A stretch of DNA of 64,000 nt from Leptogorgia sarmentosa (Eukaryota). Shown here one piece after another: positions 2,075 to 62,516 of the stretch. Within the stretch, counting starts at the first letter, position 1. Each line of letters begins with the position of its first letter. The notes under the pieces were generated by a model. That model was not told where the DNA came from. It saw only the letters and a list, made by a program, of their open reading frames with translations, and searched no databases. The translations under genes were made by a program, and so were the position numbers. Location of the stretch: the NCBI GenBank assembly GCA_964658305.1, contig OZ210884.1, positions 4,464,001-4,528,000 on the forward strand, in the 5' to 3' direction.

Positions 2075-5000
2075 ATGTCGACGATATTTCAGCACCAACA
2101 AAATGCCAGCAATCATCGTGACTTACTGGGCCCTGCAAATGTAAGTATATTGATGTCACGTATAGTGTTATAAACCAGACATGCCTGATCGATAACGACT
2201 GAAGTAGAGTTGTTTATCCTGATGACTGTAGACAACTATAAATCAGTTCACCACGTTAATTAAATGAGTAGCTACATATATACAGTACTGTGCAAAAATT
2301 ATAGGCACCTCGTGAATAAGCATTTGACGCCATCTTATTGTAAACTTATACGATGCAAAAGTTATAGGCACCTCGTGAAAACGCATTTGACGCCATCTTA
2401 TTGTAAACTTATTTTAAACTTATACGATAAGTTTACAATAAGATGGCGTCAAATGCTTTTTCACGAGGTGCCTACAACTTTTGCACAGTACTGTACTTTA
2501 TCAGGAATTCTTGTTTGAGAAAATATTATGCGACTTCTACGGTCACGATATTTGATTTGATAAGGTTATTTTCCGACTTTTTCCGAATTAATTTGCTTGT
2601 TGAGCTTATACTAACTTTTAACCCATATTATGCACAAAATACCAGTAGCTAAATATCCAGCTTCAAAACGAGGCCAATGGCTTAAATGTGAATAATTTGT
2701 AAGGTCTATTATACTGCATATAGCTACATTCGTGTTTTTGCATTATGATCGTATCGATAATATCATAATTATCTAATTGGAATGAATATTTTGGGTTTAC
2801 AAAAGAAGAAAACATTCCAACTATTATCTTGATCGATATGTTTATCAGTTCGAGTAGAGTCAATTTTGGCTATAGCTGCATAGCATTATCAAATTTCAGT
2901 AGTCACTATTGAATCATGCATATTATAGGTCAATACTTTATAGCATTAGCATAACTTGTTCGAGTAAATAAACCAAATTTTTAGAGTACAAAAACTATGA
3001 TTTTTTCTAATGTAGTTTGTTGAAGCAACAGTCTCGATAACAATCGAAAACCGATAACAATTAATTCTGAAAGATTCCTTGAAAGATGGAAGTAGCTGTA
3101 GAACGTTCTTCATATTATTGAATGTGTTCGTTTTGAATACCGCGGCAGCTTCAAATTAGATAATTAGATCATTATATTTAGCCAACAAACAATTCATGAA
3201 AGACGTGTTTGCTTAACTTTTTGTATAGCTACTTATAACAAAGTGGTCATGAACAATAGAAAAAGAAAAGCTTTGCTAGCGGCGGTTTGAGTCAATGCTC
3301 AGTTTGTATTAAATTAGTTTAAAGTCAAATTGAAATAAATTTCTACATACCAAATACAAACATACCAAATACACAATGGCCTGGTCCAGGAATATACACT
3401 AGAAAATCAACAACTGATAAAATATATGACTCAGACATGACAAAATCTTTTGAGAATATTTCTTATCAAGAATATCTCACAATCCTCTTCTTGTAGTCGT
3501 ATAAGCTAAAGCTTTACAGAATTTTCAAAATCGCACTTCGCAATCATGGCATAATATGGAATCGAAAAATAAAACTATTACTTTTGTATAGAAACGTAGT
3601 TAAAGTTAAGTTGACCAATCAGAAACGCGTATTTAAAAGTTAACTACCATTTAACTACAAAATGGATAGTTAAGAGTTTTATACAACCGATCCCTGTTGT
3701 ACAAACCCGTATATATTCTCGCGCGTATATATATTAAAAGGTGGTGCGATGATATGAATTTTATCTTCCAGTGGGGAAAGCAATATTTTACGACCCAGCG
3801 AATGAATAAAATATCATTTTCACGAGTTAGTTTTCATAGCTTTTTCGTTTCCATTTTGTATTGACATTTGAAACTATCATTTTTTTCTACAGGTAATCTT
3901 ATACCTTTTTGGTGTTCCATTCCTAAGTGTGGAACAGGGAACAACGTTTGGCTTGGCAAAAATGTTGTATGAATCGATGGGAGGAAACGGTCAGATTATT
4001 GGTTTGAGGAATCGTGACCTTTCTTCATCCTTGGCCTGTATTGTAACGCAGGATCAAACTATTTTGGACGAAGGAGAATATGATATTATTCTTACTGGTA
4101 AGTTGATGGTTCAATACCGCTTTTTTATTCTATAGCAAGCAATTGTTTTCGCGAATGGAGCGATCTGATTGGCTGCTGACAGGGCAGCATTTTTCCGTCA
4201 TTTCCCACGGGCATGCAATACGCAATTTTTATAGCTCTATGAGGAAAATAATTACACAAAACTTTAATATTGAATGAAATTTTAGTTGAGGGACGAGCAG
4301 CATTCTGAGAGCGAGTTTTCTTACTCGCGCAGCTTGGTAATGAAGGATACAAAACTGTTTTTCGTCAGTTTAACGACGTACAGTTGCTATATTAATTTGG
4401 TTTAGTCGAGTATGTCATTTGAGCTCATTTCGAAACGCGCGTGTGCCATATAATAAAACTAGCAAGACCTCAGTTTGCTATTTTCCCGTACAGCCCGAAA
4501 GAAGTCAGTAAGTTATTAGTATTTCGTCTCTGTAGCTAAGTTAACAAAGTCCCACAATAACAGCAAAGATGTAATTTTATGCAGTAAAAAATTCAATACT
4601 GAATTTGTCTGCTGTTTTTTTAGCAAGAAGTGGAGCCTTTTCAGACAAAACGTCAACCACTCACCGTAACAAAAATATTACTACAAGAATTTCTTCACAA
4701 AACGAATCTCAAGTACTGCGACGAGACGATTCGTTTCCAAATTCGAAACAAATAACGTGGAGGAACGATATGCGCGATATTGATATTCCCGTAGAAAGCA
4801 GTGCAAACGATATTCCTACGTTTGGCAAAGATACTCACGATGGTAGTATCTCTGCTAATGATAAGAATTACACAGAAAAACAACAGCCAAGAGATTCCGT
4901 CATTAACAGTTTCCAATATACAAAGGCCAGAGAAGAAGTTATGCCTCAATATAGAAAGGAACACATTGATCAAACTACAGCCATTGCATCTCCTACAAAT

Positions 5001-5861
5001 AGCTGTATTTCACTAAGCAGTGATAGTACCGATGGATTATGCCAAATATCCCCAAGAGAGGTAAATATTTATTTATTAAACAACAGCGCACGTGGCCAGA
5101 GGTATAGCACTTCACGATAACGAACCCTAAACGATAAAACAGATTCGACGTTTCGACCGAAGGGCCGGGCTGTTTTATCGTTTAGGTAGTGAAATTATCC
5201 TTCCTGCTCTTGTTCGTTAAATAGTTATTTATGCATCTCTTTATGCCTGTATTAATTATTTATGTTTGTGCAATGAATAGTACTTAGTCCCCAGCTGTAT
5301 TGATTACGCGCGGTTAGCCTTGTGCCAATTAGTCATCTATAATCTTATACTCTCATAATTTTTATAAGACAATAAGAATGCTGTCAATATACGCTTCAAG
5401 GAATAACGGAAAAACATTGCAATGCCCACGTAGCCTAATGCTGTTTTCTTTTTGCATTGTAGTTTGAGCAATCTCTTACTCGTAAACGAAAGTGGCAGTG
5501 TTGTCATTGTAAGAAGTTTTTCCGCTGTCGCAGTGCTCACGACAGTCACCAGAGAACACATACGGGCGAAAAGCCGTTCCAATGTGACGTCTGTAGTCGA
5601 CGCTTTAGTCACAATGGAAACCTGAAGCAACACATGTACATCCACTGCGACATCAAACCATATGTTTGTGACGTCTGCGGAAGCGGTTTCATTCGTCCAA
5701 ACAGATTACGAGATCACAAACTGTCACACGAATACAAACTTTATATGCTCACGAAAGTGAAATTAACAAACACATCAAACGTTCCGGCAGCGAGTCGTGT
5801 TAAGGTTATTTCGCCCCCACCTAGTGCAGACAAGGAAGCTGTAAAAAAGGCTGACCATTAG
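2075..5861 (+). CDS. C2H2 zinc-finger protein with 3 C-terminal fingers, ~368 aa
   Basis: join(2075..2140,3893..4097,4624..5060,5463..5861), all GT-AG and phase-consistent. Last exon: WQCCHCKKFFRCRSAHDSHQRTH-TGEKP-FQCDVCSRRFSHNGNLKQHMYIH-CDIKP-YVCDVCGSGFIRPNRLRDHKLSH. First coding exon is the least certain. Confidence 0.85.
2283..2493. mobile_element. Tc1/mariner-like MITE in zinc-finger gene intron
   Basis: TA|CAGTACTGTGCAAAA ... TTTTGCACAGTACTG|TA; long inverted arms, with a ~60-bp tandem duplication in the left arm. Confidence 0.85.
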
Positions 5862-6505
5862 GATAAGTCGTAAACCCATATCTTTATTATTACTAGTATT
5901 AAAATACTGCAAAATCCAACACATTAACGAACTAAATTCAGGTATAGCCTACAGATCGACCAAGGAGCGAATAGAAAAAAGAGATAGCAAAATTATTACT
6001 CACAAACTGAAACTGCTATTGTGAATTTTAATTAATCAAGACTGTAATTTATTGTTATTTGAAATTTATATGCAATAATACTTTTGAAGCAGAGCTTCTT
6101 CTTTTTCCAATGACTAAACAAAAGTGAAGTTGACCATCCATTCGGTTTATACTGAAGATTTGGATTAAAACATTTGCCTAGATTTGGCAAAATAATTTCA
6201 CCAGACACGCTTGCCTACAGATAATTAGGTCTCGGCAAATATTGCTTTGTGAAGGCACTACAATTTTGCAGTAAATTTGCAAGACTTTGCAGACAACGCG
6301 GAGCGGGGGATTGGGGCGGCTTTAAGTTTTATTAACGCTATTTGCAGGTTTGGAAGAGCAAAAAATTTTTTTGTTATGGCAAAATGATTTTGTAATAACA
6401 TCGCCAAAACACGCGTGTAAACGCCGACACGCGTGTAATTTTTCATTAATACTTCTCGAACCGTGTTATTTCCTATACAAATATATAAAATCACTAACAT
6501 TCAAC

Positions 6506-15830: not shown

Positions 15831-16050
15831 TTAAATTATGAGCTCGAAATTTCTATGAAGTGATAGAGGACGGGCCCGAATCAACTATCATCTCGTAGAA
15901 ATCGAGAGCGAGTAATCTAATAATTTTAGTAGAATCAGACATCAATCATATATCACTTATATAGCGAGAAATAATAGATAGCGAGTAGAGTATAATATAA
16001 TCAAATTGCATCATTTGCAATAGTATACAAAATATATGATTCTACTAAAA
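15831..16050 (-). mobile_element. Hairpin-ended Crypton-like element, degraded copy of the 51875-52177 family
   Basis: Reverse complement matches the 51875-52177 element (GAATCAACTATCATCTCGTAGAAATCGAGAGCGAGTAATCTAAT); same IR pair TTAGTAGAATCA / TGATTCTACTAA. Confidence 0.7.
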
Positions 16051-21049: not shown

Positions 21050-24031
21050 GTCGATTTGAATTCCTTCCACTGAGCTATAATAATTGCGCATGGCCTGAAA
21101 GCCTGGGGACGAAAGTGGGAATTTTGGTATTCTTTAGGAAATCTCGGGATATATAGGGAGTTTAATTGGGATTTTTACCAAGTGAAATAAGCATCGCGTA
21201 AGTGTTAAATTAAGGAGTTGCGTACAAACATATTATACAAGGTGAATATGTACGATGCTCTAGCAATCATGTACATGAAAATCAAACGAATCATCGATCA
21301 TTTTCCAATCCTTTCCTTCTATCAAAATCCTTTAATACACTTGCAATGGCCGAAATTAGGGTTATATTTTCATGTTACACACACTAATTCATTTCTATCA
21401 CATCCTAACCATAACATTTATTTCAAATTTTCAACGCTAATGCCTAACCCTTCCCTGTCTCTCTATTAGCATTAAAAAGGGGGTAATTGGAGTAGCCAAT
21501 GGAAGTGAGATTATGTAGGTGAACAATTTAATTCAATATTGCTAGAAATGGCTATATTGCTCATCAGTCTTGATATGGTGACATATGCCCTTGATATGGT
21601 GAGTCGACTTGTACATTACAATATAATTGCATTGCCTCATGGTTTGGAAGAAAAATTGCGCATTGTGACATTAAGAGCTTATATCAGACAACTATTCAAA
21701 CCAAATGGATAATAAAGTGACTCTTAATAAAATAGCCTCTCAAGAGGCTTGTCTCTCGCTGGTCTTTGAGTCTCGGATAGTCTTTGAGGTTTACAAAGAA
21801 CTCTTTGTTATAATATGTTTATACATACTTGTATTTGAATGTATTATCTGACACACGTGCAGTATTGAACGATCGCAAGCCATTCGCCGAGTATTAATAA
21901 TTTGAAAACAATTCTCGGCAGAAACTAAAAACCCGTTCCTCAAAACGTTGAAGTTTATCGTACTCTCTGCAGAGCGGATCGAATTTTTGCTGCTTCTTAT
22001 GTTGTTATCGTATATCCGCTACCATGTCAGGCAACACCAAGGACTATTGAACTAAACTTGTTTGCCTTAGTTTGTATTTGTCAAATATCAAGTTGACGGA
22101 AATATATAGATATTGTATCGTCGTTCAGTTTCTGCGACGAGATACAGTATTCAAGGATACATTCAAAATGAATAGAATACATAAATTATACATTCATATT
22201 TGAATAAGACAAACGCATGCAACTTGGCACAAATAAATATGTTGTGTTAATTTTTCAAAAGAAACAGGCACGCATGACTGAATATCTTTGAGCCTTTTCC
22301 TTTTTTTATTTTAATAAATTCCAAGCAACAAATGAAATGTTAAAGGCTAACAAATTCGCCTTTGAACACATGAATTTGTCAAAATATAAATTTGAAGAAA
22401 GTTCCGATAATAAACCAAGTATATTATTGAAAAAATTAAATTTGTCAAAAATTTGTCAAAAAAATTTGGCTCCTATCAAAGGACCTTTCAGTGATATAAT
22501 GATGATAACAATCTCATTAACACATTGTTTAAATTTTCCGTATAAGACATATTCACGTCATAATCGTTAAAATCACGAATCGCCTAGATCATCGAATTTA
22601 AAAGCATATAACTTGGTTGGAAGAGTGTTCAAACGTGAAAATACATAGAGTAAATTTGCATTGACTTGTATAGCTAATATTCAGCCGCCACCAACAGAAA
22701 TTTTGACGCTTCTGTATAGCTATATAGCTAATTTCCGCATCGTGTGTCCATTGGATTCAACTTAGATTCACACAAAGAAAGGTTCGTGGCATAGGTTTGT
22801 ATAAATTATATTTAGTTAGAATCTTCAAAGTGGTTAAATAGCTTCTTTATACCAAATTTCAACAACGGTATAGTCTCGCGAACTTCATCCCAAGAAAATA
22901 TCTCTCGTAATTGCTTTTGCCTTGGCAAAAGTGACATTTTTAGAGTTATATTATTATCATACATTTCATAGGCTACAGTAGTTTTGTAAATATCAAATAT
23001 GAATACACTCCAGTTCCGGCAGTTCGGCTAACAATTCAGTATATCATTAAAATTAAAGGATTAATTTGAACAGTTTTCTTGTTTAAAATATTAAATTCAA
23101 AAAAAAATTGTGTGCAAAATTATAGTAGCTATGATTTTATATAATTGCTTTTTGAATTTTTGAAGTGCTGACAATAAAAATATTTATGATACGTATATAG
23201 AGAACGCTCATGATCAATGGATATATTGCATTTGTTGGCCTTGGAGGTGCATAAGATTAACCAAGCTATATAGATCACAAGATTTTTAAAGAGAATTCTT
23301 AATTACAATATAGGATACTGAAGACATACGAAGAGAGTATAGCTAGCTAAATTATTATTATTATACTAAAATGACCAGCTACTTTCAACATCGCTCATAC
23401 TCAGTTTATTAGTATTAATAATAATGCTCGATGTAGGCGTTCCTCTTCTCGTTACCTATATTATAATATATATAACGGGTCTTGGGGATATTTTCTCCCA
23501 TGTTTCATTTTCCACTCAAACCCTATATAAAATCACGAGAATGCAGCATGCAAGATAGCAGGTCAGCTTCATTTTCGGAAAACATCCATAGTCTCGGAAG
23601 GCAGAGAATTGAAATTGAAAAAATACTAAAGCGATTTTATTTTAGTTTATGAAAGAACAATAGCGCCTGCATAAAATATACAGCCCACTATCATGGGACT
23701 ATTTCCAAACTTTTTTTACTAGCTCATGATCATTGCTTTCCACTCATACATTGCGTTACTATAGTTTTGTTCCCTCTGAAGCCTTTTTGAGAACGACTTA
23801 AGTTAGTTTGCAACTAGCTATATGAACTGAACGCGAAAGAGATATTTTTACTCGCATATTGGTTTCATTGATTCAGCCATACCTCTTCTCAAAGCCGATT
23901 TTTAAATGTCGACACAAGGCCGAAAAATTATATTATCCACAATAGCGTGGCTTTGTGAGTTTGAGGATGCCGTCTGAAGTAAGGGATACGTTAAGCTGAT
24001 GTTATACGGAATGATCACTGAGCTAAAGAAA

Positions 24032-24689
24032 TACTGGAGAGAGTGCACGGCATCAAAAAGTGAAGCCAAAATTATGGCGTGGATTCATGCTTGCCACGCC
24101 AGATCCACGCCACTGGTTCCTAATTTTCATTGGAGCACCACTGACCACAACTAACTTTGAGCCCACTAAAGACTTGTTTTGGCCAAAATATTTTGGTTTT
24201 TGCAAAGGATTTTTCGGTTTTTCGTTCTTTTTTGACATTCTGATATCATTTGCTGCCTTCAAGACGACTGAAGAAGTGGCGACATCCATTCTAGCTAGTT
24301 AAAAATTAAGCGACACAGATATTCAGAGCTCGAAAATCTCATTTGAAACTTGAAAGGTAGTCTTTTTAGAAAATATTTTATTCAATTTTTTGCATAAAAA
24401 AGGGATTACATTTACCTTTTTGGTTGAAAAAACTCTGCTTTTTTATAAGGATTGTGAAACCGTTTCAGCCGTGCAAAAATTCGGCCTTTTCGTCTTGATT
24501 TTTTCAATATAAAAACAAAATTTCGGCTTCTTTTTACAAAAACATCGTCGGTCGGAAACATGAGACCGCTGTTGGTCAGTGGAAATTATGTGAGAAATAG
24601 GAACCAGTGGCGTCAGCAAACGGTAAAATCCGCCATGTTTTTGGCTTCACTCCTTTGTATGAAAAAAGTCGAGTGCACTCTCTCCAGTA
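24032..24689. mobile_element. Non-autonomous TIR DNA element, superfamily unassigned
   Basis: Perfect 17-bp TIR TACTGGAGAGAGTGCAC / GTGCACTCTCTCCAGTA plus subterminal inverted blocks (GTGAAGCCAAAA, ACGCCACTGGTTCCTA); related end fragment at ~57470-57561. Confidence 0.8.
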
Positions 24690-25543
24690 ATATTATATCT
24701 CAGTGGGAATGATTTTTAACGATAATTCGCACCGCAACCGGACTGCCAAGCCAATCGTCTTTTCCATCTGATTTGAGGACACCGTGTTCTTTCCATATCC
24801 ACCTAATATATTTTGATTGAAGAGTAACTTCTTTTAGATTGATCTCTCTAAAGTTCAATCACACGTAGGGTTGATTTTCAATAGAAAACGTTGGTCTGTT
24901 TAAGCAATCCCGAAGAGACTGTTCTTACGGAGAAATAGGTTGTTTGAATTAAGAGTGGTCAACAATTCGAACAAAATGGTTAGGAAACTCGCGATGGGCA
25001 GACAGTATTGCATACCTTGAAGCAGTTCTGATGAACGGCTATGAGCATGTAGAAGTTCAAATAATTGTTTCATGCTTTACATTATGGATGGAACAGATTG
25101 TATGTTTGTTTAGATTTGACTTGAATTAACCACAACTCTAAATATGTTTTAGTTCTTAAAACTAGCTGGAACATGTACAAACGAATCAGATAAAATAATT
25201 TTTGTGAAAGTCACCGCATATATAAACAATCATATTACCTAATTTTAGAGCAAATATCATCATTGTTTAAAATCATCCAGTGTAACAACAGCTTTAGGCC
25301 ATTAGTGCTGGAATTTCTCAATTAAAAACGCACATATGCATGTTTTAGCGCATTTTCATCGATAATCGTTTTAACAACGTAGCGACACACTGAATATTTT
25401 GATGGAAGATAACGTTGCTACGTAGGGGTGTCAGAACAGATTGCGAGTCACACGGACACAACTTAAACTTGCCAAATGCAAATACAACTGCAAGTATTGA
25501 CAAAATGTATAAACTTAAAATTTAAAAATGTTTTACACGGTAA

Positions 25544-26148
25544 AGGTTTCAAAACGCTCAGGTTTCAAATCGCTCAGGTTTCAAAACGCTCAGGTTTCAA
25601 ATCGCTCAGGTTTCAAAACGCTCAGGTTTCAAATCGCTCAGGTTTCAAAACGCTCAGGTTTCAAAACGCTCAGGTTTCAAATCGCTCAGGTTTCAAAACG
25701 CTCAGGTTTCAAATCGCTCAGGCTTCAAAACGCTCAGGTTTCAAATCGCTCAAGTTTCAAAACGCTCAGGTTTCAAATCGCTCAGGTTTCAAAACGCTCA
25801 GGTTTCAAATCGCTCAGGTTTCAAATCGCTCAGGTTTCAAAACGCTCAGGTTTCAAAACGCTCAGGTTTCAAATCGCTCAGGTTTCAAAACGCTCAGGTT
25901 TCAAATCGCTCAGCTTTCAAACCGCTCAGGTTTCCAAACGCTTAGGTTTCAAATCGCTCAAGTTTCAAATCGCTCAGGTTTCAAAACGCTCAGGTTTCAA
26001 AACGCTCAGGTTTCAAATCGCTCAGGTTTCAAAACGCTCAGGTTTCAAAACGCTCAGGTTTCAAAACGCTCAGGTTTCAAATCGCTTAGGTTTCCAAACG
26101 CTCAGGTTTCGAAACACTTAGGTTTCAAATGGCTCAAGTTTCAAAACG
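25544..26148. repeat. 16-bp minisatellite, ~38 copies
   Basis: Unit AGGTTTCAAA(A/T)CGCTC; two variants alternate irregularly; degenerate at the 3' end. Confidence 0.95.
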
Positions 26149-26673: not shown

Positions 26674-27006
26674 TAACTATCTTTATTATATAGACAAGCA
26701 CTATAATTATATGAGATATTCTGTAATCTGATTGGCTGAGCTACTCACTAGCTATTACTTCATATATAGTGAGTAGGACGAATTAATTATCTCACTCAAG
26801 TGAGCTTAAAACGAAATGGCTGAAAATGGCTGAGCGTTTCCCTCAAATGAATGATTTTAATAAATTTTATAATGTTCGCCTTTTGTCTATATAATAAAAC
26901 AATTATACCATTCGCTCTCGTCGTATATGGCTGATAGCCAACTCGGCTGCGCCTCGTCGGCTATCAGCTCATATACGACTCGAGCTCATGGTATAATTGT
27001 TAAATA
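26674..27006 (+). mobile_element. Hairpin-ended Crypton-like non-autonomous element
   Basis: TAACTA/TAAATA ends; IR TTATTATATAGACAA / TTGTCTATATAATAA; CTGATTGGCT; relic MAERFPQMND at 26826; hairpin 26898-27001 with TC/TC mismatches and GCTGCGC tip. Confidence 0.75.
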
Positions 27007-28572: not shown

Positions 28573-31500
28573 ATGATTCGCTGTCATCTTTATATCTTCG
28601 CTTTGTTGTTAGGAGCTGTGAATATTCACGGTATGGCCGGTAACAGTAACTACAGTTACCATTTGTTGAATTTATATGCGATGCTGAAAATGCTCAAAAA
28701 ACCGAGCGCTGTATCAATACGTTGTAAGCAAATGATTTTTTTGTATGTAAAAACGCGGTAACACTAAGAAGAATTCAAAATAACAAAGATGCATGCCTGG
28801 TAAAAAATTCAACAACTTCGGGGCGGGGGATTGCGCATCTAGAATAGATCAGGGGTAGCGTTAACGTTGTCGTTTCGATGCAGGTATTTCATGTTTTGTG
28901 TGGACGTTTTTTTAGGTGAAAAAATAAAAATAAAGAAAGTACTTCGAAGACTTTATATAACATAGTAACGACGTTAACTTTGCATAAACTAATGAAATTT
29001 CTAAGCACAATCGTACTTGTAGGAACTTGCAATGAAAATGCTGAAGAACATGTGATTAACGGCGTAATTGAATGTTTCTGCAAATTTGGCTATTATGGAA
29101 ATGGAAAAAATTGTACAGGTATGTCTTGTATTTAAATCTGACACTTTTTTGCACCTTAATCTCTAAATGTTCATATTTAAAATTACAAGGAGTGCGTCCA
29201 AAAATCGTCGATATGCATGCATGTGCTACTGTAAGAAAAGAAATTTGACGCGAAAATGTGGAACCTCGCGCGCATTCGATTGTGTTCACCCAGGCGGAGA
29301 TTACAAATTGCAATGCCAAAAATACCAGATTTATATTAACCTCCGTACCTTCCGCAATTTTCTTATTTCTTTCCAGATATCAATGAATGTTTCAATCCCT
29401 GTGCTTGTCCTACTGATCAACAATGTCTCAATACGGAAGGCTCCTATGAGTGTAGAGGTACAATTTGACACATTTCCTGAAGAATTTCTAAACTGAAAAT
29501 GGTAACGGCGATAACCTCATCGTGAAGATGATAGGCAATGTTAAAAAGTTGAAATCATCTTGCCTTCTACAGAGAGTCCTTGCGACGAAAATGCCGAGTG
29601 GTATTTGATTAACGGCAGAAGTGAATGTTTTTGCAAACTTGGTTATTATGGGAACGGAACAAGATGCACAGGTACCTTTGAATTTGATAAAATAATGTTT
29701 TGAAAATGATCTTAATTCTTTTATATTTGCACGATATTCACGCGTTTCTTCCGTCATTTAGGCCTGACTTTTATACCTGTCACGTTTTATTGGTTGTTTC
29801 AATTTTTAGACTTTTTGTATTTTAATATTAACCAAAATTTTAGCTCTAAACCTAACCCCAACCCTATCCCTAATCCTAACCTTAAACCAAGTAATGACAC
29901 TAATCCTTTCCTAATGCTAACCCTAATCCTATTTCAAATCAACTATAGAAATAGTAACAGCCCCTAAATCATGACTCATATTGGCTGACTTTAATTATTC
30001 GTCCTTCTAAACACGTTTAAAGCGTGAAATCGTCTCTTCAAAATTGGAATATTTCAGTTACGTATCGTCTTATCAATGTTCAGACTTCAGCGTTCTGAAT
30101 TATTTTGTTACAGATATTAACGAATGTTTGAATCCTTGTGCATGTCCTACAGATCAGCATTGTGTTAACACGGAAGGTTCATATGAGTGCAGAGGTACTG
30201 TACATAGATATTGGAAAATTTACTGAAACATTTTAGAAATGAAACTCGTAGCGACTTTACTGCTATGTCGGGGGAATAGAGGTATCTTAGAGTTGAATTA
30301 TGCATGCTGAATACTCTGAATTTTATAGATATCCCGTGCGACGAAAATGCTGAGTGGCATGTGATTGATGGTATGATTGAATGTTTCTGCAACGATGGTT
30401 ACTATGGAAATGGAACAGATTGTACAGGTACGTTTGATTTTGATAAGACCAGATGTTCTTAAAATTTCATATTTTTTAACTTCAATTTGTAAATCCTGAA
30501 CAGATGTCCAATTCTATGTTGAAAAATCATTTAAAAGGGGCAACCTTCTTTTCTTTAGGAACAAAGCGACTGTATTAATTTCAACGTAGTTATTATCTAT
30601 CATCTTACCATAATAAAAATTAAAAATGAATACCATGCATGATTGAGTAATAAAACCTATGTTATTACTCTCTTACAGATATTAACGAATGTTTGAATTC
30701 CTGCGCTTGTCCTACAAATCAGCATTGTTTTAATACGGAAGGTTCATATGAATGCAGAGGTATATAGATATTCAATATTTATTATATGGACAGCGGTATT
30801 TTATTGGGAACTAAAACACTCGTAGAACTCATACGCCACTACATCCGGGATACGGTGCGCGTATTTTCCGTATGTCACGCTTAGGGGTGACATAACCTTC
30901 CCGCCTTTTTCGCTGTTTACAAATGGCTTCTACTTCAAGGTTTGTGAATTTAAGCCAAGACGATATTAGTACGTTTTGCGAAGAACAATAAAGCTACAAT
31001 ACTACAATAAACTACAATAAAGCGGTATTTTATAATCTATATTTAGTAAAGGCTAATTTTAAAGCCATTAATTGTCGTGTTTTAGACTGCATGTTTTCAT
31101 TAAAAGAGTAGTTGTTGTGTATTTGTGTCACTCTGAATAAGTCCATTAATAAACAGAACATTACACGGCTCGCTCGAAGATATGGATTTTATGTTCTCGT
31201 GGCAAGAACAATATCTCACTCGTTCGCTGCGCTCACTCGTGAGATATTGTTCTTGCCACTCGAACATAAAATCCATATCTTCTCGCAACCGTGTAATATC
31301 CTATATTTATGAAACATCATCCAGTTGAAACTGGTAACGACATTACTGCTATGTTGGGAATCTTTAAAGAGTTGAATTATTCATGGTGAATTTTATAGAG
31401 ATTCCGTGCGACGAAAATGCTGAGTGGCACGTGATTGATGGTATGATTGAATGTTTCTGCAACTATGGTTACTATGGAAATGGAACGGATTGTACAGGTA

Positions 31501-34500
31501 CGTTTGATTTTGATAAGAGCAGATGTTCTTAAAATTTCATATTTTTTAACTTCAATTTGTAAATTCTGAACAGATGTCCAATTCTATGTTGAAAAATCAT
31601 TTAAAAGGGGCAACTCTCTTTTTTAGGAACAAAGCGACTGTATTAATTTCAACGTAGTTATTATCTATCATCTTACCATAATAAAAATTAAAAATGAATA
31701 CCATGCATGATTGAGTAATAAAACCTATGTTATTACTCTCTTACAGATATTAACGAATGTTTGAATTCCTGCGCTTGTCCTACAAATCAGCATTGTTTTA
31801 ATACGGAAGGTTCATATGAATGCAGAGGTAAATAGATATTCAATATATATGAAACATCTTCCAGTTGAAACTGGTAACGACATTACTGTTATGTTGGGAA
31901 TCTTTAAAGAGTTGAATTATTCATGCTGAATTTTATAGAGATTCCGTGCGATGAAAATGCTGAGTGGCACGTGATTGATGGTATGATTGAATGTTTCTGC
32001 AAAACTGGTTACTATGGAAACGGAACAAATTGTACAGGTACGCTTGATTATAAGACCAGATGTGTTAAAAATTTCCTATTAACTTCATTATCAATTTGTA
32101 AATTCCTAACAGTTGTCCGATTATGTGTTGAAAAATGATTTAAAAGGGCAAACCTTCTTCTCTTTAGGAAGAATTAACTGTATTTTTAAATACTTAGTTA
32201 GCTAGTATCATCTTACCAGAATAAAAATGAATACCATGCATGATTGAGTAATACAAACTATATTCTTACGCTCTTACAGATATTAACGAATGCTTACATT
32301 CCTGTGCATATCCTACATTTCCATAGGCCTGTTTTAAGCTTTTGGACAAGATTAATGAAAAAATTAAAATAAATTAAAACAAAAGCACATGAAGTTCTCC
32401 ATGGCGTTTGTCTCAATCCAACAACTTTTAATGATATTGCAGACATTGATGAATGCAAGAACCCTTGCGCATGTCCAGAGGGATATGAATGCATCAACTC
32501 CGTAGGATCATATGGATGTAGAGGTAAGCTATAAAACGTGGAACTAACGAAATGAAATATTGCTTGTTTACGATCACATGAATTTTTGCTCAATTGACGG
32601 GCAATTGAACAACTTGTACACGATTTTTCCCAGTATGCAAGTGATGGTAGCAAGGTTGAAATGACGGTGACACAACTATCTAAGACCTAAAATGTCTGTA
32701 ACTCTTAAAACATCTCTAATGGATCGATTTTTGTCATGATACTTACCCGTCAACTTGAATTCAAACCGATAGGTTGATACAACCAATAGGTTGCTCGTAC
32801 CGTTGGCCTTTGCCAAGACCACTTTGACTCCTGGGAAAAAAGTGCGTAATATGATTCTAATAAGAGGAATTTTTTTTAGAAATTAACGAATGTGAGGGCG
32901 GTCACAATTGCCACGCGAATGCCACGTGTGAAAATACTGATGGTTCATTCAATTGCACTTGCATTACTGGATACTCCGGTAATGGAACTGACTGTGAAGG
33001 TAAGCCATTTTTTAAATGAAAATTAAAACAGGGGAATGGCAATGTGTTTGTTTGTTTTTCGTACGCTTTGTATTTATATTTTACTAAAGGGCTAATTTAC
33101 TGAAATTTTTTTCTGAAAACCACTATACTTTCTCAACGTCTTGAATCCTGAAATTTATAAACAAGCAAACACCTGACTCAATTAAATCAATACATTTTAA
33201 TCTATACATTCTCTCATACTCGTATGTATACACGTATGTATACACATCAACCTAGAAAACAATCGATACGAAAATATGCTTTTTTCGATGAATATTAAAC
33301 AATTATTGGATGAGGCTGAGCATTATATCAAGAATTATTCAGACCGAGGTCAATGTTATCTGCCGAAGCGAAGCTGAGGCGGATAACATTTGCCGAGGTC
33401 TGAATAATTCTTGATATCATGCGAAAGCCGAATCCAATAATTGTTTTATTATACATTTAAAAGAGAGTTAACTTTCATTCAGCGAAGCAAATCTGGTGCA
33501 GGCCATTGTTTGTTTGTTTGTTTTTTCGCGCGCTTTTAGCTTCAAGCTTTTGACAGCGCTAGGGTTTGGACACGAGAGAGTCCAATAATTTTTTTTTTGG
33601 ATGCAAGTTCGATCCAAAAAAATAATTATCGGACGCTGATGACGTCATCGGCGGAAAATACGTAATAAATACCGAATACTGAGAATTATCCGGTGCTTTC
33701 TGACCAATCAGGAACGAGAATAAATTTTAAATGTATAATAAATTCTATTAGTATACACCCACCATCGTCTATTACAAATGCTACATTCTGATTGGCTACT
33801 CAGTCGTAATCCATTCCGTGATAGTCGACGGTCGCCAAAAAGCAAAGGAAAACAATATGGCTACTGTAGAAAACTCGCGTTTTGCTGAGGTTTCTGACGA
33901 ATTTTCTTGATATAAATCATTCTAGATCTGGGCATAATGTGTATACTAAAACCATTAGTGAACTCGGCCTCTTTGTCTAATTGTTAAATATCAAATATTT
34001 TTGGGATATCAATATTTATTTCATGATATTTTTATACATCAGTATTTATGAGCTTGATTCGCTTGTAGGAAGTCTAATGATATATTGTTCCAACAATTTT
34101 TCTCAGATATCATTGAGTGCGATGAGAGCATTCATAATTGTCATGACAATGCGACGTGCAGCAACACTGAAGGTTCATTCTACTGCACTTGTAAATCTGG
34201 ATTTACAGGAAATGGAACTCATTGTGAAGGTTAGCACGTTTTAGCGTGGCCTGCATGTGATCCCAAAGAATGTTGACTTGAGAAAATGGAGAGAAATTAA
34301 TAATAAATAAAAATTCACGCACTGTATTCCTAATGAAAGGCAATGCTTACTCATACATATCTCTTTTTCATTCAATGGAACAATTTAGATATTCATGAAT
34401 GTAATGGCACCAGTCATAATTGCCACACCAATGCAACGTGTCACAATATTGATGGTTCGTACTACTGCAGTTGTAAATCTGGCTTTACAGGAAATGGAAC

Positions 34501-50912: not shown

Positions 50913-53755
50913 CAATCCTGGAAATTTACATAGAAAGTGAAGGCTGTAATGACCCAGGTATTTCAGGATGTGGCCATGCAACCATTCGAGTCAACGGTAA
51001 AGACCACTCCAAGCACTTACGTGGTTACAATGTTGTTGTTGTCAATGGAAGGACAGGTATTCATGTAATGCGGAAATGTAGAAACATTAACGCAAAATGT
51101 AAGAGTAAATACGGGTATTTAAAGAAATTTCGTATTTTAAGAACATTTTTCTTGTTTTCTAAAGAATGTGGCGAACTATGAAAAAAATACCTGCACCCGT
51201 TATAATACGTGTTAGTTATATGAATGGAGATTCATATAGCGCTTCAGCATTTGACTCCGAAGTAAAAATTTCACATTTTTAATTTTCTTATTTTGAGAAA
51301 ATTAAGAAAATAATTCTTACCATGCCGTCATTTCTTATTTTAAGAAACACTTAACTTATTTCAAGAAAATACGTTCTTATTTTAAAGAACGTTTTTCTTA
51401 ACATAGCCAAGAAAATCATATTTCTTTTACTTCTAAAGAAGAAAACCTGAAATGTTGCCCTGTTTCTTCCCTGAACTTGGAACCGTAGGTGCATGCCGTA
51501 TAATTATAGAAACCTGCATGTCATTATGAATTTACAAGCTCTTCATAATTATTAGTTACAGCTAGATTTTGTCGATACTCTGTATTTATAATTATCTTAG
51601 TAAGAAGAGATACAGCTGCGCGCACTGACACATTTTGATATATGTATAATTATAATCTTCTGGTTTAGGATTGGTTGAATCCAGCACGTCATTCGATACT
51701 CATGCACAGTCCCCACAACTCTTGATTAATCATTTGAAGAACATAGCGCCAGGGTAAGACACACTCATGGATGGCATTTTGAGGCATTTTCTCGGCACTG
51801 CCGCTGGAAATTGCACATAAACACCAATATTGTGTACTGTGAAATAATGCGTTTTGCCCTTAGACAGCTATAGCTAATTAGTAGAATCATACTCGTATAC
51901 TATTGCAAATGCTGCAATTTGATTGGCTACTCTACTCGATATCTATTCCTCGATAGATAGCGAGTAGCAAAATATGTGAATTTTCGTTCAAGAAAATGTC
52001 TTCTCAAGACGCGTTTTTAAATTATTTTTTGCAATATTTTCATGTTTGATCTCTGATTCTACTAAAACAATTAGATTACTCGCTCTCGATTTCTACGAGA
52101 TGATAGTTGATTCGGGCTTCGCCCTCATCAACTATCACCTCATAGAAATCTCGAGCTCGTAATCTAATTGTTAATTAAAAATTGTCAAAACTTTACTTTC
52201 TCAAATAATGTATTATTGTAACATAATAATTAGCTATTGAAGTATTATCGCCGATGAATTACGCTACAGCCCGAAATCACATGCAACAAAACACCATTTT
52301 TAATCTCAGTAGAAGATTAGAAGAGTGGGAGCTAGGGTGGCACGAGATTGACGAGGAACAAAAACGAAAACGTGCATTTGATGCGACATAAATATGTGAA
52401 AATATGTTGTAGAAAGCTGGTGTTAGTTGCCATCCAAGATGAAGCGTCCCATAGTATGTCTCCTGCGGGTTACTTCGCTTTGAGAAGATTTGGCGCCCAC
52501 AATCAAATTAAGAAGAATTTTCGGTCATCGTACGCACTCCTTGGTTGGTCAGGACACGGGAAGCTAGATGCGGTCACACAGGTATCGCTAAATATAGAAC
52601 AATGACTTATAACTTAATAATAAATGCATGCAAATTAGGCTCAATTTCTCGACGTTGTTACCCCAAAAGTTATCGTTCCAATTTGCTAGAATGCACAAAC
52701 AAGCACATTCAGCTTTGTCACTATCCGCTGCTTCAGTAACTTGTTAATGTGGCGTAGTCAGATCTACAGGGTGTCCAAAAAAACCGGATCTGTATAAGTT
52801 GATTATAGGCATCCGATGAAATTTAATTCACATTAATGTAATTATTATTCAACTTAGTTTGGCAACCTTGATATCTCTGTGCCTCTGGGCATATTTCTGC
52901 ACATTTTATGTATAGTATAAGTAAAAGCAAAACGGGATAACAGCACTGTAAGACAGAAAGCGATTTCATTTTTAATGACTACATAAATATTTTTGTGGGT
53001 TTCCTTATTTTTGCGACACCCTGCATAATTAAGTGGACATAGTCGTATATTCGCCTTCACGCACGTTAAAAGCAATCGATCATAAAAGAAATTTATATGC
53101 ATATGCTGAGTACAAATGTACGAATACTACGCGCAATATAGTTAATTTCAGGCCTGTTTGATTCTATAGAGCTGTTACATTAATTCTATCAATAGTCCTG
53201 CTTTATTTCTGACAGATATCTGACATTCAAATCAGGCCTTTTTACCTGCAAAAAAAATTCCGTTGTGTTTCAGACAGAAATGATACGGATTTCAATGAGC
53301 ATTACAAAGTTTAGTTTGAAAATTGTTTATAGCGATTTGCTTTAATTGGCTTTGAGTATGATTGATGAGACTGCCCCATGTTAAAGTGTACTTTAAACCC
53401 ACAAATAATAACATAAATGGGCAATATTTACGCCCATTAACGGTGATTAACTTGTTCATATACGTAGCTATACAGATGAGATATTTGTATAGATGATGAT
53501 GGTGCATGTAAGGTATATAAACTAGTAAATAAATTTTCCAACTCAACCTTTTCCTTGTGAAGTCAGGCAATTAAGTATAGATATAGGCTATAGTCATATA
53601 AAAAGTAGGTTCAATTAAGGAGTTAGCTATATCACTTCCTTCTACATGCTTCAATGTGGCTGTTAATTTTATAACTTCTTCAAATATAGGTTCAACGGCC
53701 ACGACATCACGGACCAAGTATTATTTCCAAAGTAATCACCTTGCCTCTATATTAG
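50913..53755 (+). CDS. ILEI/PANDER (FAM3-like, GG-type lectin fold) domain protein; 5' exon not identified
   Basis: join(<50913..51056,51669..51753,52413..52581,53690..53755), in phase. Motifs SEGCNDPG..GCG, RGYNVVVVNGRTG, SFDTH, LVLVAIQDEAS, FRSSYALLG, GPS. Confidence 0.8.
51875..52177 (+). mobile_element. Hairpin-ended Crypton-like element in ILEI gene intron
   Basis: Exact TAATTA at both ends; IR TTAGTAGAATCA / TGATTCTACTAA; TGATTGGCTA; hairpin 52066-52172 with TC/TC mismatches and GCTTCGC tip (52116-52122). Confidence 0.85.
52767..53023. mobile_element. Mariner-like MITE
   Basis: TA|CAGGGTGTCCAAAAA ... TTTTTGCGACACCCTG|CA. Confidence 0.65.
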
Positions 53756-54008: not shown

Positions 54009-54553
54009 GTACTCGTACTTGTACTTGTACTTGTACTTGTACTTGTACTTGTACTTGTACTTGTACTTGTACTTGTACTTGTACTTGTACTTGTACTTGT
54101 ACTTGTACTTGTACTTGTACTTGTACTTGTACTTGTACTTGTACTTGTACTTGTACTTGTACTTGTACTTGTACTTGTACTTGTACTTGTACTTGTACTT
54201 GTACTTGTACTTGTACTTGTACTTGTACTTGTACTTGTACTTGTACTTGTACTTGTACTTGTACTTGTACTTGTACTTGTACTTGTACTTGTACTTGTAC
54301 TTGTACTTGTACTTGTACTTGTACTTGTACTTGTACTTGTACTTGTACTTGTACTTGTACTTTTACTTGTACTTGTACTTGTACTTGTACTTGTACTTGT
54401 ACTTGTACTTGTACTTGTACTTGTACTTGTACTTGTACTTGTACTTGTACTTGTACTTGTACTTGTACTTGTACTTGTACTTGTACTTGCACTTGCACTT
54501 GCACTTGCACTTTCACTTGTATTTGCACTTGTACTTGTACTTGTACTTGTACT
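54009..54553. repeat. (GTACTT)n hexanucleotide microsatellite, ~90 units
   Basis: Directly visible; GCACTT variants near the 3' end. Confidence 0.98.
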
Positions 54554-61797: not shown

Positions 61798-62516
61798 CTT
61801 TGTCATCAAGCGCCGCGGGGGGTATTGCGCTATGCTAATTGGAAAAGTAGGACAAACACTAGAATTCTATAGTATATAGTATAGTATGGTTACCACCAAA
61901 AGGTGCGCTTGGGGAACGTGTTTTAACGACTCGATGCTTCCTCATTTGTTCAAGAAAAACGCTAATGGAGATGAAGTGTTTTTTCTTCATTTTCCTGGGG
62001 CTAAATACCATGGCGAGAAACGCAAACGATGGATACAAGCTTGTCACCGAGGCGATGGGTTTCATTGTATGCACTAAATACAGCTACATATGTAGTCTTC
62101 ATTTTGTCGGAGAGAATGGTCCTACATTTGACTATCCAGATCCTATATCGGCGGTAAAAAGTGCGGAACAGGTAAGTTTTCATAGACAGCTGTAGTATGT
62201 AAATATACTGCGAATATTATATAAATATATTCCGTTTACACGGGATATTTCAAAAATGTAACTTGAAACCTTTGTTGTTCGCTTTGACATAGCGTTGTCC
62301 GCTTTGACAAAGGTTTCAAGTTACATTTTTGAAATATCCCGTGTAAACGGAATATATTTATATAATATTCGCAGTATATTTACATACTACAGCTGTCTAT
62401 GAAAACTTATCTGTTCCGCACTTTTTACCGCCGATATAGGATCTGGATAGTCAGATGTAGGACCATTCTCTCCGACAAAATGACAAAATGACCCCCCGCG
62501 GCGCTTGATGACAAAG
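61798..62516. mobile_element. Foldback derivative of a THAP-bearing DNA transposon end
   Basis: 26-bp inverted pair 61798-61823 / 62491-62516 (CTTTGTCATCAAGCGCCGCGGGGGGT) and 177-bp inverted arms 62099-62275 / 62307-62483. Confidence 0.7.
61886..62171 (+). pseudogene. Frameshifted THAP (C2CH zinc finger) exon, probably transposon-derived
   Basis: MVTTKRCAWGTC...FLHFP...KRKRWIQAC..GDGF, frameshift near 62062, then VCTKYSYICSLHFVGENGPT...PDP; donor CAG|GTAAGT at 62171; no downstream exons found. Confidence 0.8.

Follow-up and report, generated by a model that had tools for sequence, protein, structure and literature searches.

A 64,000-nucleotide stretch of the Leptogorgia sarmentosa genome (contig OZ210884.1, positions 4,464,001 to 4,528,000), hereafter the window, carries four elements with a long terminal hairpin, termed E33, E26, E31 and E52 (Table 1). 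These elements are most likely non-autonomous Cryptons, a known group. It is considered probable, from the arrangement of their sequences, that such an element moves as a single folded strand, the one bearing G.A mismatches: the strand would be circularised, its junction would fold on an internal inverted copy, and one exchange followed by replication would insert it. An earlier note made from the window's letters had presented the phenomenon as undescribed. This holds for the mechanism and the design of the ends, but not for the class of elements, which is already known as CryptonA, a membership that the note missed. What is new is the end design and the putative exchange of one folded strand, not the element group.

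The four hairpins were located where the earlier note had placed them, at 33297–33446, 26898–27001, 31160–31297 and 52066–52172. The first, that of E33, contains the three GA/GA internal loops that had been named, a fourth G.A-rich loop, and a GCGAAGC tip at 33368–33374. The other three have TC/TC loops with GCTGCGC or GCTTCGC tips on the plus strand, that is GA/GA and GNA loops on the minus strand. The polarity of the hairpin with respect to the element body is identical in all four. The stems had been called unrelated, which is true of most pairs (51–60% identity) but not of the 26-kb and 52-kb hairpins, which are 71% identical. A first motif with fixed GA positions found no match in the window, and a pattern generalised from three of the hairpins gave three matches, against none in 100 shuffles. 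Folding with DNA parameters yielded −53.5, −40.1, −55.0, and −38.8 kcal/mol for the G.A-bearing strands of the four hairpins, and −49.9, −36.6, −52.6, and −34.3 kcal/mol for their complements. The claim that only one strand folds well was too strong for the values computed, as both do, the G.A strand being better by 2.4–4.5 of 34–55 kcal/mol. The G.A strand is also favoured in all four cases by an RNA model, with a gap of 10–14 kcal/mol that exceeds that of the DNA model. In our judgement, the folding models used capture sheared tandems poorly.

A metagenome scan returned at least 120 hairpins, and the counts of copies given below refer to the matches listed. Seven families of 5–34 copies were recognized, and two single copies were excluded from the consensus step. 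The hairpins have stems of about 50–75 bp and tips made of three-base GNA loops, where N can be A, C, T or G. The earlier note had proposed to look for enrichment of GA/GA and GNA features and for stem covariation, and this was done with 13 hairpin types (the seven family consensus sequences, the four window hairpins and two copies from a viral collection), in which only the loop was fixed by the search pattern. Arm-to-arm mismatches comprised 72 G.A against 4 C.T, together with 17 G.T, 3 A.C, 5 A.A, 1 T.T, and 1 G.G. In ten hairpins of the AACAATTA type, pairs 9–13 are Watson-Crick in 50 of 50 instances, with two to four pair types per position, and pairs 17–20 in 40 of 40. Positions 15, 16, 21, and 22 are G.A or A.G in 9, 10, 10, and 6 of the ten, respectively. 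The G.A loops thus lie at fixed distances, 14 and 20 bp from the base, while the adjacent stem pairs vary in a compensatory manner. The note's suggestion that structure rather than sequence is conserved is supported.

The strand preference extends beyond the window. Folding energy favours the G.A strand in 104 of the 120 copies, by 2.07 kcal/mol on average, and likewise in 36 of the 38 copies from a further genome, G001. This entry of a prokaryote collection (loci L162–L282) holds 33 of the 37 pattern matches found in 185,579 prokaryote genomes; the remaining four do not fold. As it also contains 26 matches to the CryptonA recombinase, G001 probably includes much animal host DNA. In G001, the pattern with a GNA loop matched 39 times, and that with the complementary loop not once. 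A 416-kb scan without loop filter, from which the 120 pattern matches were left out, returned 35 long hairpins. Six of them combine a C-GNA-G tip with GA/GA and five a C-TNC-G tip with TC/TC, none being discordant; three of these 11 are window hairpins. The other 24 have different tips, and 20 of them lack any tandem. Imperfect palindromes with unpaired features and a skew favouring one strand, as in an attC-type site, were found in these elements.

The viral collection gave no match to the long pattern. The short tip motif occurs there at 41 loci, and long hairpins at only six, all with one source prefix. Low-GC records of this collection (L002, L003, L028, L036, L039, L040) show a GA/GA loop and a GAA tip in their long hairpins; in L028, a pair of inverted hairpins, separated by about 600 bases, marks both ends of an element. 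In two copies from the scans (L275:3515-3673 and L272:874-1040), one hairpin arm is replaced by the complement of the other, by arm conversion or as an assembly artefact. In L275 the replacement runs on into the flank.

On the G.A strand, the elements follow a common layout. The left half of the target, MTAW, is followed by two family-specific bases, AACAA, the hairpin and TTGTT, then by the sub-terminal arm, the body, and a far arm ending in MTAA; beyond the element come six free bases and WTAK. The bounds of E33, given as 33293–33745 in the earlier note, were corrected to 33296–33741 (446 bp). When the joined ends of each window element were folded by script, one continuous stem was obtained in four of four cases, in which the far arm pairs with the sub-terminal arm and, past a 2-base bulge, the hairpin follows. 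This fold is better on the G.A strand by 3.3–4.8 kcal/mol. The basal stems of E31 (by three G.T pairs, minus strand) and of locus L208 close only through G.T pairs on the G.A strand, so that the inner copy is imperfect as a repeat in duplex form.

The insertion target is MTAW-N6-WTAK; elements enter it at one spacer edge, and no duplication results. MTA is present on the left flank of 93 of 116 copies, compared with a background of 4%. The far end could be placed in 46 of the 120 copies; contig ends cut off most of the others. On the right, WTA stands exactly six bases from the far end in 38 of 43 copies, and in 0–3 of 43 at offsets 3–5 and 7–9. The joined flanks of 11 out of 45 insertions match uninterrupted homologues without a gap at the joint (L046, L076, L110, L114, L116, L122, L131, L136, L141, L146, L151). 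L094 is an insertion at the start of another element, and the remaining tested insertions had no informative empty copy. In sequencing run X4, an allele devoid of E26 has 26680 and 27004 separated by just two letters, consistent with the 6-bp spacer bearing one substitution. From the 11 gap-free joints and this allele, nothing is duplicated or lost on insertion. Readings of the ends as direct repeats with TTA or TAATTA cores were dropped on this empty-site test. For E31, a duplicated intron without the element is found at about 31830.

The footprint of insertion is one-sided. Among 20 relatives of E33 selected by BLAST, 16 start with TAAACAA, TTAACAA or TTAGCAA, two are one base off and two are irregular. 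Of 141 matches to the far arm outside the sub-terminal site, 104 are followed by N6 and WTA (20 with one mismatch), four by a head-to-tail element and 33 by other sequence, many of the latter being probably chance arm matches. The element's own spacer followed by host DNA was found after the far end in none of the 141. Exchange of both strands across unlike spacers would be expected to leave two junction types; a single type was seen in the 20 relatives and 141 arm matches. The footprint fits an exchange that would involve one strand only. No circle-type joint of E33 was found among 15 of 36 joints.

The link to CryptonA comes from elements that code for a recombinase. One of 60 long open frames in the vicinity of hairpins, that of L093, represents a CryptonA recombinase in decayed form; the hairpin flanks also hold host genes and four reverse-transcriptase fragments, all of which lie outside the elements of about 300 bp, as far as located ends show. 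In G001, the 26 recombinase matches are spread over 19 contigs. On nine of these a hairpin lies 0.2–1.2 kb downstream of the gene, with TC/TC on the coding strand; the favoured strand is thus antisense to the recombinase gene, in agreement with the earlier note. The 5′ arm is also present in L199, L206, and L208. L199 (about 2.27 kb) has one insertion within the gene and intact catalytic motifs, and its Phage_integrase domain scores above cut-off. The motifs GLRG, HSARKR, SGHK, and NNY are found in L199 and in most of 28 aligned homologues, and L199 retains what we take to be the R-K-H-R-H-Y catalytic set. L206 measures about 1.0 kb and L208 about 1.9 kb; the flanks of L208 match an empty repeat from the empty-site test.

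The end of E31 is 80% identical over 163 nucleotides (E 8e-36) to that of L221, in which the recombinase C-terminus lies about 400 bases upstream. E31 therefore shares its end with an element coding for a DUF3504-type tyrosine recombinase. Together with the end design that flanks CryptonA genes, this supports the assignment of the window elements as non-autonomous Cryptons. No long terminal inverted repeats were found. The earlier note's view of the partner enzyme as a tyrosine recombinase, and neither a DDE transposase nor a reverse transcriptase, is supported. E33 itself very probably belongs to CryptonA, on the basis of the shared junction layout and target, of the 5′ end type of L093, and of a contig from the window's own species, with a depth of 473, in which a 45-base stretch matches the recombinase gene. 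Contigs of the sequencing runs gave only short matches to L093. This locus starts with the same TTATTATA end type, and its hairpin, of opposite polarity, is probably part of a nested copy.

Named relatives of the partner recombinase come mostly from stony corals. When viral and prokaryote-genome contigs were searched with peptide patterns drawn from the recombinase alignment, no relative could be confirmed. L202 and L212 (contigs C255 and C400 of G001) carry a more distant recombinase family and a different stem sequence, with the same end design. The only clear match of the CryptonA recombinase profile among solved structures is the domesticated QRICH1 domain (PDB 9hjt/9hju), a possible modelling template.

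The following mechanism is proposed. The G.A strand would be exposed during replication and its hairpin would fold, sheared G.A tandems, G.T pairs, and the C-GNA-G loop favouring this strand over its complement. A tyrosine recombinase from a full-length copy would cut the G.A strand after the MTAW of the target and after the MTAA of the far end, and join the ends. Within the circle, the far arm would pair with the sub-terminal arm and so lengthen the hairpin, giving a site of two arms around a 7-over-5-base spacer. A single strand exchange with a genomic MTAW-N6-WTAK site, then replication, would fix the insertion and keep N6 intact on the far side. To the enzyme, the two G.A loops, 14 and 20 bp away from the base, may mark the strand to be used, as unpaired bases do in attC. 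In these terms, we lean slightly towards regarding animal Cryptons as the eukaryotic counterpart of integron cassettes and CTX phage, with a recombinase that would act on a folded strand and read the G.A spacing and the GNA tip.

A number of points weigh against this mechanism. Each of its steps is deduced from sequence. Since the families share ancestry, the mismatches cannot be counted as independent events, and 16 of the 120 copies fold better or equally well on the TC strand. Both strands fold in the models, with a modest gap of 2–5 kcal/mol, and the energies cannot separate DNA from RNA, because the RNA model gives the larger strand gap. The target spacer of E31 has seven bases instead of six, and MTA is found in only 23 of 38 left flanks in G001. 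The one-sided footprint rests on the E33 relatives and the far-arm matches, as the search pattern itself required a hairpin-side start; such a footprint is also left by elements that exchange one strand without a folded site, according to the portion of PMC9345347 consulted. No downstream hairpin was found on 10 of the 19 recombinase contigs, several of which are truncated. All coding copies found are of the E31 subtype, and a comparison of 28 loci related to the recombinase, together with 18 regions of G001 that surround relatives of E33, revealed no recombinase-coding copy with AACAATTA-type ends. The AACAATTA-type hairpins near recombinase genes (L093, L265, L212) resemble separate nested insertions, as demonstrated for L265 only.

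Cryptons might instead exchange one strand on duplex DNA, in a copy-out manner as proposed for the Vibrio SE, the hairpin serving for second-strand priming, nuclease shielding or recruitment of a host factor. This would account for the one-sided footprint. One strand of SE elements is indeed circularised by tyrosine recombinases (PMC9345347, in part), and nuclease-resistant mini-hairpins of the GCGNAGC type occur at single-strand replication origins and promoters of phages (PMC13037366, in part). It is nevertheless considered unlikely, as duplex exchange needs no exact internal complement of the joined ends, yet this is kept with different sequences in each family. It would not call for the basal G.T pairs of E31 and L208 either, or for loops at constant distances of 14 and 20 bp from the junction.

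The G.A bias may also be a by-product of fold-back repair that homogenises the arms of palindromes and spares well-stacked G.A and G.T pairs, transposition proceeding via an ordinary double-stranded circle. Homogenisation of the arms yields compensatory-looking changes without selection, and arm-converted copies do exist (L275, L272, C620, C719). Neutral repair should, however, put G.A on either strand and at any position, whereas the polarity is 39 to 0 and the positions are fixed. It is further countered by the long hairpins with other tips, 20 out of 24 of which have no tandem of either kind, and by the single junction type where double-strand exchange should give two. This origin of the bias is judged improbable.

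It is highly improbable that the elements are non-autonomous copies of Helentrons, which use an HUH endonuclease. Helentrons and HINE/DINE-1 have a similar layout, with sub-terminal inverted repeats, a 3′ stem-loop, no target duplication or other change, and a single-stranded step (PMC4067079, in part), and the autonomous partner of E33 itself did not turn up. The same source gives Helentrons an HUH Rep/helicase enzyme, a TT target and palindromes of 5–10 bp, unmatched by the two-arm target with 6-bp spacer and the stems of about 50–75 bp present here. Unlike in Helentrons, ends of this design flank recombinase genes. Helitron_like_N had no match in G001, in a search without positive-control signal, nor any among the 60 long open frames near hairpins.

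Hardly any credence is given to a hairpin acting as RNA, in an antisense transcript, a terminator or a silencing trigger, with G.A tandems as RNA motifs: the RNA model does prefer the G.A strand in four of four window hairpins, but GNA triloop tips are far more stable in DNA than in RNA (PMC13037366, in part), and the hairpin stem is continuous with the recombination junction. A miniature inverted-repeat transposable element (MITE) of the DDE type does not fit the asymmetric ends and the lack of target duplication, nor does membership of integron attC fit the animal intron context and the DUF3504 recombinase partner.

The preferred reading, movement as one folded strand, can be set beside known systems. 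In the accessible portions of Kojima and Jurka 2011 (PMC3212892), CryptonA elements of animals, including cnidarians, have a single tyrosine-recombinase gene (DUF3504 and Phage_integrase) in about 2 kb and abundant short derivatives. The sizes of L199 and L208 compare with the 1.2–2.3 kb listed there. In the same portions, two inverted arms around 6–8 bases form the usual tyrosine-recombinase site, animal Cryptons are devoid of terminal repeats, and the words 'hairpin' and 'palindrom' are never used. The split inverted repeat, the long G.A hairpin, the defined target and the one-sided footprint distinguish the present elements from that description. Eulor5 and Eulor6, two vertebrate repeats, may bear a similar hairpin. 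They are classed as ancient Crypton derivatives through termini similar to those of salmon Cryptons, and hairpins are unmentioned in the consulted text of PMC5753468. A full-text literature search, judged by titles and the openings of abstracts, turned up no paper on Cryptons with hairpin-shaped ends or tandem G.A mismatches, nor on their movement as a single strand; Repbase reports and subscription journals lay outside its scope, and a prior mention is possible.

The integron attC site, as described in part of PMC5027507, likewise presents a folded single strand, here predicted, to a tyrosine recombinase, and one exchange is resolved by replication. Its bottom strand is favoured by 2.12 kcal/mol, with more G:T pairs, a purine skew and a GAA tip. 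The attC site is 'ready-made' in each cassette and recombines at attI or attC (PMC5027507), whereas here the complete site would form only after end joining. The present elements further differ by dispersed genomic targets, tandem G.A loops as strand marks, and an animal host, and the activity of attC is proven whereas theirs is predicted. Head-to-tail stacking, as in attC, was found at four junctions; stacks of this kind are seen in L042, L094, L095 and L189.

In CTX phage, two inverted recombinase arms of a single-stranded circle come together by folding and form the site, which is integrated through one exchange followed by replication. CTX borrows the host XerCD and uses one chromosomal site, whereas the present elements would use their own recombinase and many sites. 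Integration of CTX attP(+) at dif is named in PMC9345347 (in part). The Vibrio SE, which have a tyrosine recombinase and circularise one strand, are bacterial, with four core genes, and their authors contrast them with the folded-site cassette route (PMC9345347). The GCGNAGC motif contains a sheared G.A pair and forms a mini-hairpin of unusual stability as DNA, but a much weaker one as RNA (PMC13037366, in part).

Table 1. Coordinates of the elements and neighbouring features in the window.
Feature	Positions	Strand	Basis or details
E33, 446-bp non-autonomous element	33296..33741	- (orientation as in recombinase-coding relatives, hairpin 3′; G.A-forming strand +)	loose ends at 33741, contig ending there, inverted repeat pair, junction motifs
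E33, terminal hairpin	33298..33445	+	14-bp basal stem followed by a 2×2 G.A loop; then a short stem, another G.A-rich loop, a further pair of GA/GA loops and the C-GAA-G tip (GCGAAGC 33368-33374)
E33, fixed 7-base start TAAACAA	33296..33302	+	opposite 5-base partner 33441-33445 when joined ends fold, leaving 2-base bulge
E33, sub-terminal arm, inverted copy of far end	33446..33462	+	33445-33462 matches 33725-33742 at 18/18
E33, far-end arm, terminal ATAA	33725..33741	+	inverted repeat pair, loose ends, junction motifs
Target left half ATAT (fits MTAW)	33292..33295	+	junction motif and consensus
6-bp target spacer ATTCTA	33742..33747	.	between E33 and E33b
E33b, a further element of this design, facing E33 head to head; its hairpin is largely deleted in this copy	33748..33987	+	depth 5649-6636 in three runs
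Original target right half ATAT (fits WTAK)	33988..33991	+	junction motif
E26, 321-bp element, E33-like design	26683..27003	+ (G.A strand -)	hairpin, inverted repeat pair, junction motifs
E31, 528-bp element, second subtype	30779..31306	+	hairpin end homologous to recombinase-bearing copy L221
E52, 297-bp element, E33-like design	51878..52174	+ (G.A strand -)	hairpin, inverted repeat pair, junction motifs
Decayed copy of E52 family	15831..16048	-	BLAST pieces 87% and 83%
Host EGF-domain exon upstream of E33 (context only)	32882..32998	+	Pfam EGF_CA E 3e-10
Host EGF-domain exon downstream of E33b (context only)	34109..34228	+	Pfam EGF_CA E 1e-10

E33 is a very abundant gene-less repeat. In contigs assembled from four sequencing runs, its summed contig depth, which is not a copy number, amounts to 3785–6371 in three runs, compared with less than 10 in most unique bins. 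Its host is an EGF-repeat gene, where it lies within an intron and has a calcium-binding EGF exon on either side. E33 and E33b would represent two insertions of opposite orientation at both edges of one 6-bp spacer, as suggested by the target consensus, the exactly six bases between them and the ATAT on both outer sides. The elements hold their own target motif within an internal palindrome (51932–51967 and 26741–26776 in the window) and in the hairpin stem; other copies insert at such internal motifs (L114, L076, L122), a case of self-targeting and nesting.

Further repeats are found in the window. The segment 34041–37466 consists of about 12 tandem copies of a 282/290-bp exon-intron unit, about 94% alike, each with an EGF exon. 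At 61798–62516, a perfect inverted repeat of 26 bp encloses 177-bp arms with 99% complementarity (62099–62483). Small elements at 377–547 and 24016–24705, whose inverted ends are of the CAGTGGCGT type, probably belong to a different MITE group. Satellites of 16 and 6 bp, and a short telomere-like run of the CCCTAA type, occupy 25544–26148, 54009–54553, and 29846–29888.

According to the available part of a 2026 review (PMC13565253), the movement of Cryptons has so far had no experimental demonstration, and a double-stranded circle is assumed as the standing model. Now that the ends are placed exactly, the target has a consensus, a folded substrate is predicted and recombinase sequences are available in intact form, the mechanism becomes directly testable. 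If the proposal is true, attC-like recombination would extend to eukaryotes, and single-strand, structure-guided recombination would take place in animal genomes, where natural selection would act on non-canonical DNA pairs in hundreds of repeat copies. The structural signature may help to find and classify many unassigned palindromic repeats of animal genomes, and would hint at the original ligands of domesticated DUF3504 proteins. It would also mean that a compact enzyme can paste single-stranded DNA without a double-strand break.

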